A stretch of DNA of 64,000 nucleotides, taken from positions 3,834 to 67,833 of the forward strand of contig CAZYWJ010000002.1 in assembly GCA_964651785.1 (NCBI GenBank), given 5' to 3'. Origin of the DNA: an uncultured Cryomorphaceae bacterium. Its GTDB lineage: Bacteria; Bacteroidota; Bacteroidia; Flavobacteriales_D; Cryomorphaceae. Positions 2,077 to 50,787 of this stretch are shown here, piece by piece. Numbering within the stretch: the first letter of the stretch is position 1; each line of letters opens with the position of its first letter. The notes under the pieces were generated by a model, which was not told the origin of the DNA, made no database searches, and worked only from the letters and a program-made list of their open reading frames with translations. A program made the translations under genes and the position numbers.

Positions 2077-3486
2077 TCACCACTTTTCATTGACAAAAAG
2101 CGGCTTGGAAAACACGGAATTACTCAAACCAAATTCTTTTAATTCCTTGTTATTCACAGTCCAAGGTTTATGAACAAACTCTTGTGGCACCTCAGTTAAT
2201 TCAGGCAACCAATGCTTTACGTACTCACCCTTTTTATCGTATTTATCGGCTTGACTGAGAATATTGAAATACCTGTTTTGACGCGGGTCATTTCCTACAC
2301 CTGCCACGTAGGCCCAATTGCCCCAATTGCTCGTCACGTCATAATCTATCAGCTCTTGCTCGAAATAGGCCGCTCCGTAACGCCAGTCCTGCTTTAAATC
2401 TTTAGTGAGATACGATGCCACCAATTGACGGCCGCGATTGCTCATAAATCCCGTTTCGTTTAACTCCCTCATATTTGCATCGATCATCGGTACTCCCGTC
2501 TTTCCCGTCTTCCAAGCGGTCAAAACTTTTTGGTCTTCTTGCCAGTCAGTCTCATTATTCTTAATCCCTTCCGGGAAAAAAAGCTTGTTGCCATATTTCA
2601 TCGCGACGTATCGAAAATAATCTCTCCACACCAATTCGAAAACCAACCAATAAGTTGATGAGTTCTTTTTGATCGACTTTTCGTAGCGTTTTACCTCGCG
2701 TTGAATCATTCGCGGTGAGATGCATCCGTGTGCCAGCCACGCAGAGAATTTTGAGGAGTAGTTCAAACCCAGCAAACCGTTCCGCGTGTATTTGTAAGTG
2801 CTCAGGTTTTCGGTTTCCCAAAAATAGTTTTCCAATCGCTGCCTTGCCTCTCGTTCACCGCCTTTGTATTGTATGGCTGCCTTATCGGAAATCGGGTTTT
2901 CTTTAAATCCTAAATCTTTTAATTCGGGAAGGTCAATTTCGGGAAGACCCTGAGGAGCTTTCATCTTTTCAGGAATAGAGAAGATTTCTCGCATTTCAGC
3001 CTGCTTTTCGCATTTCTTTCGAAAATCAGAAAAGACATCAGGGATTTTTTCAATCTCAAACGGAATATCTTCCGGATGGTACAGGGTGTGCCCGTGAAAA
3101 AAGTTGACTTGAACTTTTTCACCGAGACTTTCCGTTACCCGATTTTCCATTTCCAACTCTTCGCTTGTCACCTCTTTTTGAGCGTAAACTTGACTTACTT
3201 CAAATTCTTCCGCCATTTGCGAAAGCACTTGGTCCGCCCTTCCGATTTTAACTTGCAAAGAAGTCCCAATGCTATCTAAGGATTTTTTCAAGTCATTCAG
3301 ACATTCAAGGATGAAATGAATTCTTCTTGCACCGAATTTCTTGCTCCCGTATTGCTCGCCGTGCAAGTACTCCTTGTCAAAAACATAGACTGTTATTACC
3401 TCATCGCATTCTTGAAAAGCACGATATAACGCTTCATTATCGGTAACTCTCAGATCATTTCTAAACCATACTATTCCTCTTTTCAT
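2077..3486 (-). CDS. cryptochrome DASH family protein
   Basis: 469 aa. N-terminus is photolyase-like ([16 protein letters not shown]). The C-terminal FAD domain reads [45 protein letters not shown], characteristic of CRY-DASH. Confidence 0.85.
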
Positions 3487-3625
3487 TCTTATTTTTCATT
3501 CTACATCGATCGCTACAGTACTTAACCTCGGCCCAATTCTTTTCCCACTTCTTTCTCCAAGTCATAGGCTTGCCGCAAACTTTACAGAGCTTTTGAGGCA
3601 GATATGACTTGTTTCCCTTGTGCAT
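3461..3625 (-). CDS. DUF2256 zinc-ribbon protein
   Basis: [42 protein letters not shown] matches the DUF2256 pattern. The ATG at 3625 is preferred over the track's GTG at 3679. Its 3' end overlaps the CRY-DASH start by 26 nt. Confidence 0.7.
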
Positions 3626-3737: not shown

Positions 3738-6509
3738 TTATCGAACCACTTGGATTTTGTGCGTCAATTGGTCATTTCCTATAGTGATGTTCATCAAGTA
3801 GAATCCATCAGCCATATCCTGAACGTTGATAACCTCGCGGTTCAATCCGATACTTCGTTGACCTAAGTCAACACTTTTCACAACCTGACCTAACATATTT
3901 ACAAAATCAACGGTAATTCTCTCACTTGAAACCATATTCATCTCCAAGTTCATCACATTGTTTGATGGGTTGGGAAATACAGAGAATGATTCGATAGAAG
4001 AAATTTCGACAACGCTAAGCGTGGTAGGAATAAGAACGGCATCGATTACGTGAACCACACCGTTGATTGCCACTAAATCCGTAACGGTAACCATGGCATC
4101 GTTTACCATAATGTCATCTCCTGAAATGGTAATCTCTACTTCTTCACCAAAAAGCGTCATCACATTTCCGGCAGAAATATTTGCTTCAATATTGAATCCT
4201 TCGATTACATGGTAAAGCAGTACTTCGGTAAGATCTCCATCGGGATCATCTAACAATTCATTTAACAATCCGGCAGGAAGTGCATCAAAAGCAGCATCAG
4301 TAGGAGCGAATAATGTGAGTTCTTCCGACTCATCACTCAGCACACCATCGAGCCCTGCAGTGTTTATTGCCATTTCTAATGTTCCATGATCTTCGCTATT
4401 CACGACAATATCATAAACGGTAGTGAGTTCTGTTGGCAGAAGAACGGCATCTATTACATGAACAACTCCATTATCCGTTTCCAAGTCAGCCACACTGATC
4501 AACACACCATTTACAAACAGGTCACCACCTGCTTCTGAAATAGTAACATCCTCCCCGTTGATAGTCGTTACCATATCGCCATCATTTAAATCACCGGATA
4601 AGAGTGTTTGATCAGCAACATGATAAGTGAGAATATCTGCTAAGAGATTAGTCGGATCAGCGAGAAGCGCTTCTAGCAAATCAGCATCAAGAGCATCGAA
4701 GGCAGCATCAGTAGGAGCGAATACGGTAAATGTACCTTCCCCTGAAAGGACTCCTGCCAATTCAGCGGCCACAATAGCCGTTTCCAACGTTTCGTGATCC
4801 TCGCTGTTCGAAATTACGGTGAAAACGGTGTTGGCAGAAGTACATGATAATGTCGGGAAACCATTATTCGTTCCCAGGTTTTCCGAACTACCATCACATT
4901 CTCCGACTTCTTGAATACCTATTTCATAAGTTCCGTCTACGGGAGCCGTCCAAGTAATTTGACAATCTTGAGCTATGGCAACCAAATTTCCTTCAGGATC
5001 CAACACGGTAAGTTCCGGATCCCATGATCCTGCTCCGGGGCCATCACAAATGGAAAAAGTATATTCCTGACCCGCGACGAAATTGTCTACAGTATATGAC
5101 TCACTCGCCCATGCTTCAAATGTGGTAATTTGATTGGTTGGACAGACTCCGAAAGTTGAAACCGGTGCGCCACCAAAATTTGTGTTAAAATTAGTGTAGG
5201 GGCCTTCGGCAAAGGTGGTACATACGGCATCAGAAGGCACCAGCACGGCATCAATCACGTGTACCACTCCGTTAATCCCAACTAAATTAGTTATAGTAAC
5301 CTGAGCATCATTTACAAATACATTTTCGTCAACTATGGATATTGTTATCTCTTCGCCCAGTTCTGTAGTGTAAGTATTGCCATCTGCAAGATCGCCGGCC
5401 AACTCTATTGAGCCCACAACATGATATAAAAGCACATCGGCCAGTGCTCCGGTAGGATCGGACAGTAAAATATTTAAGAGACCGGCGGGAAGAGCAGCAA
5501 ACGCATCATCGGTAGGCGCAAAGAGAGTGAAGGTTCCGGGGCTTCCTAAAGTTGCATCAAGGTCAGCGGCAATAACGGCAGTTTCCAGCGTGTTATGATC
5601 ATCACTGTCCGTTACAATGTCAAGAATGGTGGTGGCCCCGGTCGGAACCAATACAGCGTCAATTACATGCACTACACCATTGATCGTAGGAATATCAGCA
5701 ACGGTAACTTGAGCACCATTTATAAAAACACCATCGACTAAGTCTACAACGACATCTTCTCCGAACAATGTAGTAATCGCCTGATCTTGTGAAAGAGAAC
5801 CTGACGGAGCGATTCCTTCCGCCACATGATTCAGCAGTACTTCTGCCAAGGTGCCCGTCGGATCTTCAAGTAATGCATTCACCAGATTCTCCGGTAAGGC
5901 GTCAAATGCTGCATCCGTAGGAGCAAATACGGTAAGTGCGTCACCATTTTGAAGATCATCATCCAGTTCAGCGGCATTAATGGCGGCCTCCAATGTATTG
6001 TGATCCTCACTTTCTACAATTATATCATAAACCGTAGGAGCATTTGACGGAATAAGCACTGCATCAACTACATGAATAACGCCATTGGATGCGCCCACAT
6101 TAGGTGACGTAATGGTAGCCATATCTATCATAATGGTACTGCCGTCATTGGAAACAGTGGTTTGCTGACCGGAAAGAAGAGTCGTCAACATTTCTCCATC
6201 GTCTAAACTGCCTGTCAATTGAGCGTTTGGTGTAACATGATACAGGAGAATATTTCTAAGTAATCCCGTGGGATCTTCAAGCAGAGTTTCCGTTAAGTTT
6301 TCCGGAAGGGCATCGAAAGCTGCATCTGTAGGAGCAAACATGGTAAGCGGACCGGGGCCTTGCAGCGGGCCTGCTAAGTTTGCGGCATCAATGGCAGCTG
6401 CTAGAGTAGTGTGATTCGGACTATTCTGAATCAAAGTGTATATCGTCTGAGATTGAGCAGAAAAGCTCAAAATAACAGCCGACATGACTAAAAGTAAAAA
6501 TTTCTTCAT
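3738..6509 (-). CDS. secreted protein with five fasciclin (FAS1) domains, a Cys-rich central insert and a T9SS C-terminal sorting domain
   Basis: Signal peptide MKKFLLLVMSAVILSFSAQS. Five repeats carry FAPTD(A/D)AF..LP and NGVVHVIDAVL(I/V)P. The C-terminus (FSVFPNPSNNVMNLEM...LTHKIQVVR) looks like a Por/T9SS CTD. Confidence 0.85.
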   Translation of the reverse strand: MKKFLLLVMSAVILSFSAQSQTIYTLIQNSPNHTTLAAAIDAANLAGPLQGPGPLTMFAPTDAAFDALPENLTETLLEDPTGLLRNILLYHVTPNAQLTGSLDDGEMLTTLLSGQQTTVSNDGSTIMIDMATITSPNVGASNGVIHVVDAVLIPSNAPTVYDIIVESEDHNTLEAAINAAELDDDLQNGDALTVFAPTDAAFDALPENLVNALLEDPTGTLAEVLLNHVAEGIAPSGSLSQDQAITTLFGEDVVVDLVDGVFINGAQVTVADIPTINGVVHVIDAVLVPTGATTILDIVTDSDDHNTLETAVIAADLDATLGSPGTFTLFAPTDDAFAALPAGLLNILLSDPTGALADVLLYHVVGSIELAGDLADGNTYTTELGEEITISIVDENVFVNDAQVTITNLVGINGVVHVIDAVLVPSDAVCTTFAEGPYTNFNTNFGGAPVSTFGVCPTNQITTFEAWASESYTVDNFVAGQEYTFSICDGPGAGSWDPELTVLDPEGNLVAIAQDCQITWTAPVDGTYEIGIQEVGECDGSSENLGTNNGFPTLSCTSANTVFTVISNSEDHETLETAIVAAELAGVLSGEGTFTVFAPTDAAFDALDADLLEALLADPTNLLADILTYHVADQTLLSGDLNDGDMVTTINGEDVTISEAGGDLFVNGVLISVADLETDNGVVHVIDAVLLPTELTTVYDIVVNSEDHGTLEMAINTAGLDGVLSDESEELTLFAPTDAAFDALPAGLLNELLDDPDGDLTEVLLYHVIEGFNIEANISAGNVMTLFGEEVEITISGDDIMVNDAMVTVTDLVAINGVVHVIDAVLIPTTLSVVEISSIESFSVFPNPSNNVMNLEMNMVSSERITVDFVNMLGQVVKSVDLGQRSIGLNREVINVQDMADGFYLMNITIGNDQLTHKIQVVR

Positions 6510-50162: not shown

Positions 50163-50292
50163 TTTGTACAGAAAATTTTGCGCAAAGATATTGGTAATTC
50201 CCAACTTTTGCTGTAATCTTGCACTCCGATTTTCAAAAAGCACCTGAACGAAGGTTGAGATTTCTGAATAATCGAAGTTAAAAGATATTTAT

Positions 50293-50366
50293 TCCTCCTT
50301 AGCTCAGCTGGTTAGAGCATCTGACTGTTAATCAGAGGGTCCATGGTTCGAGTCCATGAGGGGGAG
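50293..50366 (+). tRNA. tRNA-Asn (anticodon GTT)
   Basis: Hand-folded cloverleaf. Acceptor is TCCTCCT/AGGGGGA, D arm AGCTCAGCTGGTTAGAGC, anticodon stem TCTGA/TCAGA with loop CT-GTT-AA, 5-nt variable loop, and T arm CATGG-TTCGAGT-CCATG. No CCA is encoded. Confidence 0.9.
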
Positions 50367-50404
50367 CTTTAAAAGGGGTGGCACTGGCCATCCCTTTTTT
50401 GTTT
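50343..50404 (+). repeat. direct repeat copy 1 (62 bp: tRNA T arm, acceptor 3' strand, terminator)
   Basis: Identical by eye to 50726-50787. An additional 20-bp block at 50316-50335 (anticodon arm) equals 50689-50708. Confidence 0.85.
50375..50400 (+). terminator. rho-independent terminator after tRNA-Asn (copy 1)
   Basis: GGGGTGGC-ACTG-GCCATCCC hairpin (one G-U pair) followed by T6. Confidence 0.75.
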
Positions 50405-50704
50405 ATGAAATATTACGTTTACATACTGAAGTCAAAAAGTACTGACACGTTTTATATTGGTCAGTCTTCCGATATTGAACAACGAATGGATTTTCACAAT
50501 TTTGGTACTGCTGATAAATTCACTCTTCGCCACAGACCTTGGGAGATTTATCTTTTAATTAATTGTTCAGACAGGACTCAAGCACGAAAAGTTGAGAACC
50601 ATTTAAAGAGGATGAAGTCCAAAACATATCTAAGAAATCTGAAAAAGTTTCCTGAAATGCAAAGTAAGCTTTTACAAAAATATTCTCAAGCATCTGACTG
50701 TTAA
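50405..50704 (+). CDS. GIY-YIG nuclease family protein (short, URI-domain only, COG2827/YhbQ-like)
   Basis: MKYYVYILKSKSTDTFYIGQSSDIEQRMDFHN...ARKVENHLKR carries the GIY...YIG, Arg and Glu motifs. The ATG directly abuts the terminator T-tract. The last five codons and the stop (CAA GCA TCT GAC TGT TAA) are encoded by the duplicated tRNA anticodon arm. Confidence 0.85.
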   Translation: MKYYVYILKSKSTDTFYIGQSSDIEQRMDFHNFGTADKFTLRHRPWEIYLLINCSDRTQARKVENHLKRMKSKTYLRNLKKFPEMQSKLLQKYSQASDC

Positions 50705-50749
50705 TCAGTCCCGATAGCTATCGGGATGGTTCGAGTCCATGAGGGGGAG
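50689..50749 (+). pseudogene. partial second copy of tRNA-Asn (anticodon arm to 3' end), with the variable loop replaced by an 18-nt palindrome
   Basis: AGCATCTGACTGTTAATCAG + TCCCGATAGCTATCGGG + ATGGTTCGAGTCCATGAGGGGGAG. No acceptor 5' strand or D arm lies upstream, and the first T-stem base pair is disrupted. Confidence 0.8.
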
Positions 50750-50787
50750 CTTTAAAAGGGGTGGCACTGGCCATCCCTTTTTTGTTT
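50726..50787 (+). repeat. direct repeat copy 2 (62 bp), including a second terminator hairpin at 50758-50783
   Basis: Identical by eye to 50343-50404, at an offset of 383 bp. Confidence 0.85.

Follow-up and report, generated by a model that had tools for sequence, protein, structure and literature searches.

The tRNA-Asn locus and its cassette

The stretch of DNA analysed here, referred to in its full length of 64,000 nt as the window, comes from contig CAZYWJ010000002.1 (positions 3,834 to 67,833) of an uncultured Cryomorphaceae bacterium, and the PfkB kinase gene neighbouring the locus under study likewise assigned it to a Cryomorphaceae-like group. Directly behind an intact tRNA-Asn(GTT) gene and its terminator, the window carries a cassette of approximately 380 bp whose sole open reading frame (ORF) is a GIY-YIG nuclease gene. 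The cassette is inserted relative to close relatives, and its ends coincide with a partial duplication of the tRNA gene. Compared with empty sites, the elements follow one another in the order tRNA, repeat D, ORF, repeat B', hairpin and repeat D', and the features of the locus are listed below.

50293-50366, + strand: intact tRNA-Asn(GTT), the functional copy (ARAGORN, 50293-50367; Rfam RF00005, 50293-50366)
50316-50335, + strand: repeat B, copy 1, comprising the end of the D stem and the anticodon stem-loop (20/20 nt identical to 50689-50708)
50343-50404, + strand: repeat D, copy 1, comprising the T arm, acceptor 3' strand, discriminator, terminator and T tract (62/62 nt identical to 50726-50787)
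50371-50398, within repeat D: first terminator-like hairpin (terminator scan; T tract up to 50404)
50405-50704, + strand: 99-aa GIY-YIG (UPF0213/YhbQ-like) ORF (ORF list; PF01541)
50405-50688, + strand: 284 bp of DNA unique to the cassette and missing in relatives (repeat boundaries; empty-site alignment)
50689-50708, + strand: repeat B' (copy 2), the anticodon arm of the redundant tRNA fragment (20/20 nt identity)
50709-50726, + strand: signature hairpin TCCCGATAGCTATCGGGA in the redundant fragment, replacing tRNA positions 44-51
50726-50787, + strand: repeat D' (copy 2), comprising the T arm, acceptor 3' strand and second terminator, and forming the distal end of the duplication (62/62 nt)
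50754-50781, within repeat D': second terminator-like hairpin (terminator scan)
50170-50235, no strand assigned: conserved block in the interval from the PfkB kinase gene to the tRNA, shared with relatives (near-invariant alignment columns)

The functional tRNA (Rfam score 67.3 bits versus a gathering score of 29 for 50293-50366) is composed of a native 5' part, A-B-C1 (50293-50342), and repeat block D, and, since the gene portion beyond the junction is present twice, it remains intact. The last base of the first D copy (50404) directly adjoins the ATG of the ORF (50405). At its other end, the ORF has no stop codon of its own; its last five codons and the TAA are supplied by the tRNA-derived repeat B', the TAA at 50702-50704 duplicating bases 50329-50331 of the tRNA (AA preceded by the last anticodon base). 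Behind B', the hairpin TCCCGATAGCTATCGGG(A) at 50709-50726 occupies the place of AGGGTCC(A) in the tRNA, so that the variable loop and the first T-stem base (tRNA positions 44-51) are replaced in the spare copy. This hairpin has a 7-bp stem and a tetraloop and occurs only once in the 64 kb.

A first-pass annotation, made from the sequence alone, had described a tRNA-Asn gene followed by a minimal GIY-YIG cassette and a duplicated tRNA 3' half. All coordinates that it gave for the tRNA, the ORF and the repeats were reproduced by ARAGORN, Rfam, repeat comparison and the ORF list. The repeat identity, which it had left to computational alignment, amounted to 62/62 and 20/20 nt; both duplicated blocks are therefore exact, whereas the hairpin between them (50709-50726), which stands out as the most unusual part of the locus, had been overlooked. 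Its estimate of approximately 284 bp of unique DNA encoding nothing but the nuclease domain was confirmed by the repeat boundaries (50405-50688). Also in agreement with it, the element contains no integrase or transposase, the GIY-YIG gene being the only ORF of the cassette and the neighbours being syntenic housekeeping genes. Likewise, a scan of the window found no sigma-70-like site between the terminator and the ATG, and the ORF lacks a promoter of its own.

The conserved block at 50170-50235 is probably the promoter region and, judging from the sequence, the sole plausible source of transcription for the cassette. This block lies between the divergent PfkB gene and the tRNA and contains TAATCTTG, which resembles the Bacteroidota -7 element. 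An Rfam scan of the locus gave no match besides the tRNA, even at E<=1; specifically, no group I ribozyme core interrupting the tRNA was found at this threshold, and the tRNA is uninterrupted. Additionally, neither further GIY-YIG copies nor tandem repeats were found in the 64-kb window.

The 99-aa protein matched PF01541 over residues 2-73 (E=3.1e-14, 53.5 bits versus a cut-off of 22.6). Its closest PDB entries were the UPF0213 proteins 1zg2 (BH0048, E=4.8e-5) and 1ywl (EF2693, E=9.6e-5), which align over residues 1-83, and its motifs YVYIL, FYIG, EQR and VENH align with the GIY, YIG, Arg and Glu motifs of both. By these matches, the protein is assigned to a stand-alone bacterial Slx1/YhbQ-like branch of single-domain proteins of approximately 80-110 aa. 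No C-terminal linker or DNA-binding module was detected, the catalytic domain alone being matched in the 99 aa. A search for a HUH (Y1) transposase gave no Pfam match and only a weak, non-significant PDB match to the putative transposase 2f4f (E=0.77). A role in a defence system was considered and rejected, because PADLOC and PHROGs gave only marginal homing-endonuclease-like matches, with no PADLOC system match.

A library search at E<=1e-3 yielded 2777 homologous clusters at 50% identity. The median dN/dS was 0.13 over 107 pairs, which reflects purifying selection, and together with the intact motifs this indicates that the family ORF encodes a functional protein; truncated and frameshifted copies also exist. 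Gene callers mis-start such ORFs (50378-50704 in the window, P0001, and many library matches). For the window ORF, JGI called a truncated product of 72 aa; a start at the GTG at 50378, which lies inside the terminator, would give 108 aa. Lengths of 120-135 aa, with the domain beginning at residue 30-40, are common among database homologues, whose gene models therefore probably read through tRNA or terminator DNA.

Occupied and empty sites

Five relatives, with 82-91% identity in the PfkB kinase, share the gene order of the window (SpoIIE-HAMP, Usp, tRNA-Asn, PfkB, RNase H and formyltransferase). Their intergenic region is 367 nt long, versus 722 nt in the window, and holds the tRNA and a homologous terminator alone, with no ORF and no second tRNA half. 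The cassette is thus an insertion/deletion polymorphism. The first-pass annotation had proposed a search of close relatives for such empty sites, and its view of an inserted mini-cassette that resides at tRNA genes and leaves the tRNA intact was borne out by these five genomes and by the homologous loci described below.

The tRNA of the window differs from those of the five relatives only at T-stem pair 50:64, a compensatory flip with A-U in the window (50343 A, 50357 T) and U-A in all five. Apart from this pair, the tRNA is invariant among relatives spanning 82-91% protein identity. The first flipped base, 50343, is the first base of the 62-nt repeat, and it adjoins the hairpin position. The flip (50343/50357 and 50726/50740) and the same terminator variant are present in both repeat copies, which are identical to each other and differ from the relatives at pair 50:64 and in the terminator stem. 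From this pattern, both copies seem to be native or to have been homogenised, instead of a foreign copy standing beside a native one.

Two JGI metagenome contigs from different samples (L081 and L082; loci of the comparison are cited by such numbers) have the same arrangement, with 99.9% identity to the window over 6.2 kb. An assembly or annotation artefact, such as a collapsed or chimeric repeat, would be conceivable for metagenome-type data, in which repeats are prone to mis-assembly; it is ruled out for practical purposes because these two contigs match the arrangement in independent assemblies, and the same architecture recurs in more than 100 unrelated genomes, isolates included. A C/T variant in the terminator loop at the paralogous positions 50384/50767 reads C/C in the window, T/T in L081 and T/C in L082, and three of the five differences between L081 and the window fall inside the 124 nt of the repeats. 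Because the C and T states are shared between 50384 and 50767, they were read as ongoing gene conversion; the two repeat copies exchange sequence. Position 50759 was listed together with 50384/50767 in this terminator-loop population polymorphism.

A second cassette allele from the same host group was found on a short contig (L168; ENA ERZ27317847 k141_482005, 1-525). Its ORF is 61% identical to that of the window, its junctions are the same (after TTTTTTGTT and before AGCATCTG) and its hairpin stands in the same place, while the allele resembles the relatives in its T stem and terminator. The two ends of this 525-nt contig overlap by 141 nt (k-1), so that it closes on itself with a 384-nt period, and the contig holds exactly one unit, made up of ORF, anticodon arm, hairpin, T arm and terminator; the unit is therefore either arranged in tandem or present as a free circle.

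A comparable situation was observed in Marivirga. In M. lumbricoides (L007) and a related metagenome-assembled genome (L005), a tRNA-Met gene and a cassette lie behind a GAF-domain gene, and the two loci are syntenic because this upstream gene is 78% identical between them. For this reason, an earlier argument that unrelated flanks of the pair prove transfer was withdrawn. Marivirga sp. S37H4 (L172) has a homologous upstream region followed by tRNA-Met and a terminator without a cassette. Two further relatives of L007 (L170 and L171, approximately 4040-4330) have the syntenic locus with neither the cassette nor the tRNA-Met gene, indicating that the whole tRNA-plus-cassette unit can be present or absent. 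Nucleotide similarity between L005 and L007 begins at the tRNA, spans the inner terminator (~90%), the ORF and the remnant, and stops at the acceptor 3' end of the remnant. Because the similarity runs through it, the inner terminator is part of the conserved unit, as an insertion in the manner of mitochondrial mobile-ORF elements would predict. In L002, L010 and L007, the inner and outer terminators are unrelated to each other. No empty-site relative close enough to call the native versus the foreign terminator was found for the L005/L007 pair.

A family linked to tRNA genes and a conserved hairpin

Homologues were gathered separately from GTDB (one genome per species, 80 loci) and from metagenomes (80 loci), and loci without a clean ORF were left out of the counts (denominators 77-79). 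A tRNA was counted as adjacent if it lay on the same strand within 200 nt upstream or overlapped or abutted the ORF 3' end. By this measure, a same-strand tRNA adjoins the ORF in 51/77 GTDB and 50/79 metagenome loci, compared with a background of 0.05-0.09 tRNA per kb elsewhere in the same loci. Among these 77 and 79 loci, not a single adjacent tRNA was on the opposite strand, i.e., approximately 100 adjacent tRNAs were all co-oriented with the ORF. From this co-orientation we infer indirect support for the suggestion of the first-pass annotation that the ORF is expressed by read-through from the tRNA. Direct repeats with tRNA pieces bracket the ORF in ~50/78 and ~52/79 loci. The homologous ORFs, whose surroundings the annotation had named as a check, are thus overwhelmingly found beside tRNAs and flanked by tRNA-derived repeats. 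Taken with the empty sites and the identical repeats, none of the conditions under which the annotation would have given up the mobile-element view was borne out.

Two arrangements were distinguished. In the tRNA-upstream type, to which the window belongs and which is mostly found in Bacteroidota, an intact tRNA and terminator are followed by the ORF and a redundant 3' fragment. In the mirror type with the tRNA downstream, found in many Patescibacteria and others, a redundant 5' fragment stands directly before the ATG, and the ORF overlaps the 5' end of the intact tRNA, where the TAG of U8-A9-G10 often serves as its stop codon. A member of the clade of the window (L004) has this 5'-duplication form with a junction at approximately tRNA position 26, about as in the window. 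Family ORFs generally have no stop codon of their own and read into tRNA-derived sequence; in L088 and L096, the ORF reads into or through the hairpin.

In a neighbour-joining tree, the proteins group by tRNA type and arrangement, with clades for Val(TAC), Met(CAT), Cys(GCA) and Leu(CAA), two for Asn, and further ones; target specificity is thus heritable. Proteins from different Bacteroidota classes, at ~47-55% identity, target the same tRNA type. One clade of the tree is without any tRNA link, and the tRNA-embedded architecture is a property of particular clades (in Bacteroidota, Patescibacteria and others). Within this large family, whose clades follow tRNA type, the design, the strict co-orientation and the hairpin are inherited. 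Phage, plasmid and viral collections contained almost no members of it, and a phage or plasmid vehicle was therefore not supported.

Two or more tandem GIY-YIG ORFs are present in 28/163 loci, which suggests successive insertions or amplification of the unit. At least 3.5 identical units of 414 nt were found in L006, and tandem arrays also occur in L080; cassette units therefore exist as tandem arrays or, given the self-closing contig described above, possibly as circles. Tandem ORFs behind one tRNA were located at 3258-3518 in L003, 3378-3695 in L005 and 2056-3555 in L006; other tandem ORFs are diverged.

These data bear on a passive origin, in which a cellular UPF0213 gene repeatedly landed or was duplicated at tRNA recombination hot spots, its nuclease was not involved in the spread, and the duplications and arrays arose by slippage or unequal exchange. 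Such an origin would agree with the purifying selection, the synteny of the L005/L007 pair, the clade without a tRNA link, the lack of mobility genes in the cassette and the long association of clades with one tRNA type, which is compatible with vertical descent. Chance landing, however, does not explain why ORF ends coincide exactly with the duplication boundaries, why co-orientation is strict (0 opposite-strand tRNAs in ~100) and the hairpin recurs, or why a 61%-diverged allele has the same junctions. The patchy presence among close relatives and the targeting of the same tRNA type across Bacteroidota classes also speak against it, and we regard this origin as rather unlikely.

GC-rich hairpins, mostly with TCCCG...CGGGA stems, lie close to the ORF, within approximately 25 nt of its end on the side of the redundant fragment. 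Hairpins of the form CCCG...CGGG were present in 42/78 GTDB and 42/79 metagenome loci, at a density of 0.97/kb within 300 nt of the ORF versus 0.086/kb elsewhere (11-fold). Forty hairpins could be placed on tRNA coordinates, and all lie at tRNA loops or in place of the anticodon arm. In at least 11 loci (Met, Pro, Ala, Lys, Val and Gly), the hairpin is an exact swap of the 17-nt anticodon stem-loop; the remaining placed hairpins stand in for 3-8 nt of a loop (D, anticodon, variable or T). Several hairpins occur in some remnants, that of L014 having one in each of its four loops. We know of no precedent for hairpins standing in for loops or substituting exactly for the anticodon arm.

With the core CCGAT-N4-ATCGG held fixed, complementarity in the next two outward pairs, formed by more than one type of pair, held for 30/34 and 33/34 distinct instances, compared with only 5/34 for the third pair out. 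Conservation therefore concerns a hairpin of defined length; 17 different tetraloops occurred among the instances. Meanwhile, the other stems of the remnants showed 81 one-sided disruptions versus a handful of compensatory changes, although the alignment of swapped anticodon arms with the old arm makes this analysis noisy. Given this decay, structural maintenance of the tRNA-like remnant as a whole was rejected within the noise of the analysis.

In the clade of the window, the same hairpin accompanies the ORF at tRNA-Asn, tRNA-Met and tRNA-Leu(CAA), indicating that it travels with the ORF. Its position nevertheless varies: the window, L168, L001 and L002 carry it in the variable loop, L088, L090 and L010 in the T loop, L005, L006 and L096 in the anticodon loop, and L004 in the D loop. 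The idea that the hairpin marks one fixed cleavage site was accordingly dropped, since its position differs among close relatives.

Hairpin-bearing tRNA-fragment arrays occur without an ORF in some loci (L023 and L049). L023 has approximately 11 units of 75 nt with hairpin-bearing tRNA-Met fragments at 2060-2880, upstream of an intact tRNA. In L049, three hairpin-bearing tRNA-Met fragment units of 49 nt lie upstream (2560-2720), and two plus four units of 66 nt lie downstream (2790-2930 and 3290-3545), around a degraded ORF. Three Chitinophagaceae loci (L069, L071 and L072, approximately 2970-3310) have a 93-aa ORF with no tRNA nearby; ATTCCCGCGNACGCGGGAAT hairpins stand on both sides of this ORF, at a distance of 8 nt upstream and 7 nt downstream, an arrangement that recalls REP/RAYT.

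The hairpin data raise the possibility that mobility centres on the hairpin. Here, an Slx1-like structure-specific nuclease would act on DNA hairpins or on an extruded cloverleaf, the hairpin would be a functional end or recognition module, and insertion into the loops of structured DNA would proceed in a transposition-like or break-and-copy manner instead of by sequence-specific homing. The invariable location of hairpins at tRNA loops or as exact anticodon-arm swaps, the stem kept by covariation with varying loops, the movement of the hairpin with the ORF across Asn, Met and Leu tRNAs within a clade, the flanking of the Chitinophagaceae ORFs by the same hairpin on both sides without a tRNA, the arrays without an ORF, and the membership of the family in the bacterial Slx1-like branch would all fit. 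On the other hand, hairpins replace 3-17 nt and do not insert with target duplication, their sequences differ between clades and look generically GC-rich, and 0.4 Mb of flanking sequence showed no copies dispersed outside the cassettes. Moreover, GIY-YIG enzymes hydrolyse DNA, and we know of no strand transfer by them. Both the hairpin as end module and insertion into structured DNA are considered unlikely.

Some remnants were called as tRNAs by ARAGORN, namely as tRNA-SeC(TCA) or tRNA-Stop(TTA) in L080 (2871-2948 and 3237-3314) and L028 (3237-3314). These are copies of tRNA-Val in which the anticodon arm is swapped for the hairpin and a 7-nt loop mimics an anticodon loop; such loci might be seeding false suppressor-tRNA annotations, or their products could be real tRNA-like RNAs.

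In a system acting at the RNA level, the nuclease would act on tRNA or tRNA-like RNA, and the hairpin-closed fragment would be a co-transcribed decoy, antitoxin or regulator, resembling type III toxin-antitoxin modules with their repeat RNA, terminator and nuclease. The layout of promoter, tRNA, terminator, nuclease gene and tRNA-like RNA could be read in this way, as could the tandem arrays of tRNA-like units in some loci and the exact anticodon-arm swaps, which retain the cloverleaf outline and are called as tRNAs in part. In addition, four hairpins have T-G at one stem pair, tolerable as a wobble in an RNA stem, and an Slx1-like/TrmH fusion in a 2006 GIY-YIG survey hints at RNA metabolism. 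Against such a system stand the decay of remnant stems other than the hairpin, the variation among close relatives in which loop is hairpin-closed, the single partial fragment, unable to fold as a tRNA, in most loci, and the absence of a ToxN/AbiQ-like match for the cassette protein and of a PADLOC system match. GIY-YIG domains are, as far as we know, DNA nucleases. An RNA-level function, like its likeness to a toxin-antitoxin module, therefore appears improbable. An RNA-guided nuclease, with the hairpin as handle and the tRNA pieces as guide, is not a leading candidate either, because the intact tRNA would be a self-target and flank lengths are irregular.

A probably mobile nuclease cassette compared with known elements

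Our preferred interpretation, held with moderate confidence, is that the cassette is a bacterial counterpart of mitochondrial mobile-ORF (mORF) elements that lives in tRNA genes, keeps them whole by partial duplication and spreads through recombination in shared tRNA sequence. It would consist, with somewhat better than even probability, of a promoterless nuclease gene of approximately 100 aa and an 18-nt hairpin inside a partial direct duplication of the tRNA gene. The ORF would be transcribed from the tRNA promoter, in the window by terminator read-through and in the mirror type by virtue of its place between promoter and tRNA. The nuclease would cut a cassette-free tRNA gene, and repair would copy the cassette from the occupied allele. 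Because both homology arms are tRNA sequence, the conserved tRNA alone would be needed as a landing site. This cut-and-repair spread via tRNA arms follows the logic of free-standing homing endonucleases and mORF elements, and nuclease-driven homing is a plausible mechanism. Recombination between the direct repeats would excise the cassette precisely and give rise to empty sites, circles and arrays. As for the role that we infer for the hairpin, its presence in the loops of the spare fragment would make this fragment neither a tRNA nor a target, and by breaking homology it would let the functional copy escape overwriting; the compensatory T-stem flip in the functional tRNA may protect likewise.

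The first-pass annotation knew of no described mechanism for this layout; an analogue does exist in the fungal mitochondrial mORF elements of Allomyces macrogynus atp6 and of Glomus atp6, atp9, cox2 and nad3, which consist of a free-standing endonuclease ORF in an essential gene together with a carried replacement 3' end, the native remnant lying downstream (PMC3630166). For the Allomyces mORF, the endonuclease has been shown biochemically to drive mobility (PMC3630166). As in the cassette, a duplicated 3' part keeps the host gene whole, the displaced remnant lies downstream, and presence or absence differs between close relatives. By this analogy, the cassette may be viewed as a free-standing endonuclease element that mends its host gene by duplication, an architecture already known from mORF elements. 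However, the host of the cassette is a bacterial chromosomal tRNA gene and not a mitochondrial protein gene, its ORF encodes only ~100 aa without a DNA-binding domain, a mirror type duplicates the 5' part, a conserved hairpin replaces remnant loops, and the two copies in the window are identical instead of one foreign and one native.

Several points weigh against this interpretation. The TIGR01453 intron-endonuclease model gave 16.6 bits versus a cut-off of 56, and a protein that appears to consist of the catalytic domain only leaves the recognition of one tRNA type unexplained. The intact tRNA, a potential target, remains beside the nuclease gene. In the window, the repeats are identical and differ from those of the relatives, so that the foreign-end/native-remnant signature of mORF elements is not seen here. 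Empty sites could be losses by repeat recombination rather than sites never invaded, and purifying selection and the long association of clades with tRNAs could equally fit a host function. The near absence of the family from phage, plasmid and viral collections means that no transfer vehicle was identified there, and the varying hairpin position among close relatives is unlike a single fixed cleavage site. Finally, we know of no UPF0213 member with a demonstrated function.

Other systems resemble the cassette in part. With phage T4 SegB, the other Seg proteins and I-TevI, it shares the GIY-YIG catalytic domain and the nature of a promoter-poor selfish gene, and with free-standing homing endonucleases in general it shares presence or absence at one conserved site among close relatives (the window and Marivirga). 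SegB reportedly lies in the T4 tRNA gene cluster and cuts the tRNA gene region, and to our knowledge it is the closest precedent for a GIY-YIG enzyme at tRNA genes. Unlike the cassette protein, the Seg and Tev enzymes have 200-250 aa with linker and DNA-binding modules; the cassette protein stays below the TIGR01453 cut-off. They are also phage-borne, whereas the cassette family is almost absent from phage collections, and they come without target-gene duplication and without a hairpin. In a 2026 paper, SegB breaks are linked to segmental amplification (PMC13096335), which resembles the tandem arrays of the cassette.

Integrative islands and prophages at tRNA genes likewise have direct repeats of the tRNA 3' part at both borders (62 nt here) and leave the tRNA intact, and their recombinase lineages track tRNA type as the nuclease clades do here. 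They differ in that the cassette has no integrase, a cargo of only ~0.3 kb, a mirror form with 5' duplication, and a repeat that includes a short piece upstream of the hairpin. The UPF0213/YhbQ/YazA proteins (1zg2 and 1ywl) are of the same size, have the same domain and give the best sequence matches; no link to tRNAs is known to us for their E. coli and B. subtilis members. IS200/IS605 and REP-RAYT elements also place short conserved hairpins beside a small nuclease gene, and in L069, L071 and L072 the hairpin stands, as in these elements, on both sides of the ORF. In contrast to them, the cassette has no HUH/Y1 transposase, no dispersed hairpin copies were seen, and its hairpins replace loops of a gene fragment. 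Type III toxin-antitoxin systems (ToxIN-like) differ from the cassette, which has a GIY-YIG protein and, in the window, no tandem repeats. The bacterial Slx1-like branch has no known function, the 2006 survey of GIY-YIG proteins made no mention of tRNA genes, and no published description of tRNA-embedded GIY-YIG cassettes was found in the open-access full-text literature.

The loop-replacing and anticodon-arm-swapping hairpin calls for a mechanism, and there is a real chance that its combination with a mini-nuclease constitutes a new kind of element. It is possible, although at odds well below even, that the cassettes form an unrecognised minimal class in which a structure-specific nuclease of 80-100 aa and a cognate 16-20-nt hairpin invade the cloverleaf loops of tRNA genes and other hairpins. 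In such a class, the hairpin would be a functional recognition or end module and not a scar, and tRNA genes would serve as a universal, essential and structured landing pad that is repaired by partial duplication.

If the mORF-like interpretation is true, the tRNA genes of Bacteroidota, Patescibacteria and other phyla would host a large, overlooked population of selfish cassettes of ~0.3 kb, in which life inside an essential gene has been solved by partial gene duplication and not by splicing or integrase chemistry. It would also account for odd pseudo-tRNA and suppressor-tRNA calls and for N-terminally over-extended GIY-YIG gene models beside tRNAs. As a natural system with an extremely small nuclease and tRNA-type-specific targeting, the cassette would be relevant to nuclease engineering, and it would provide the first biological context for the widespread orphan family UPF0213/YhbQ.

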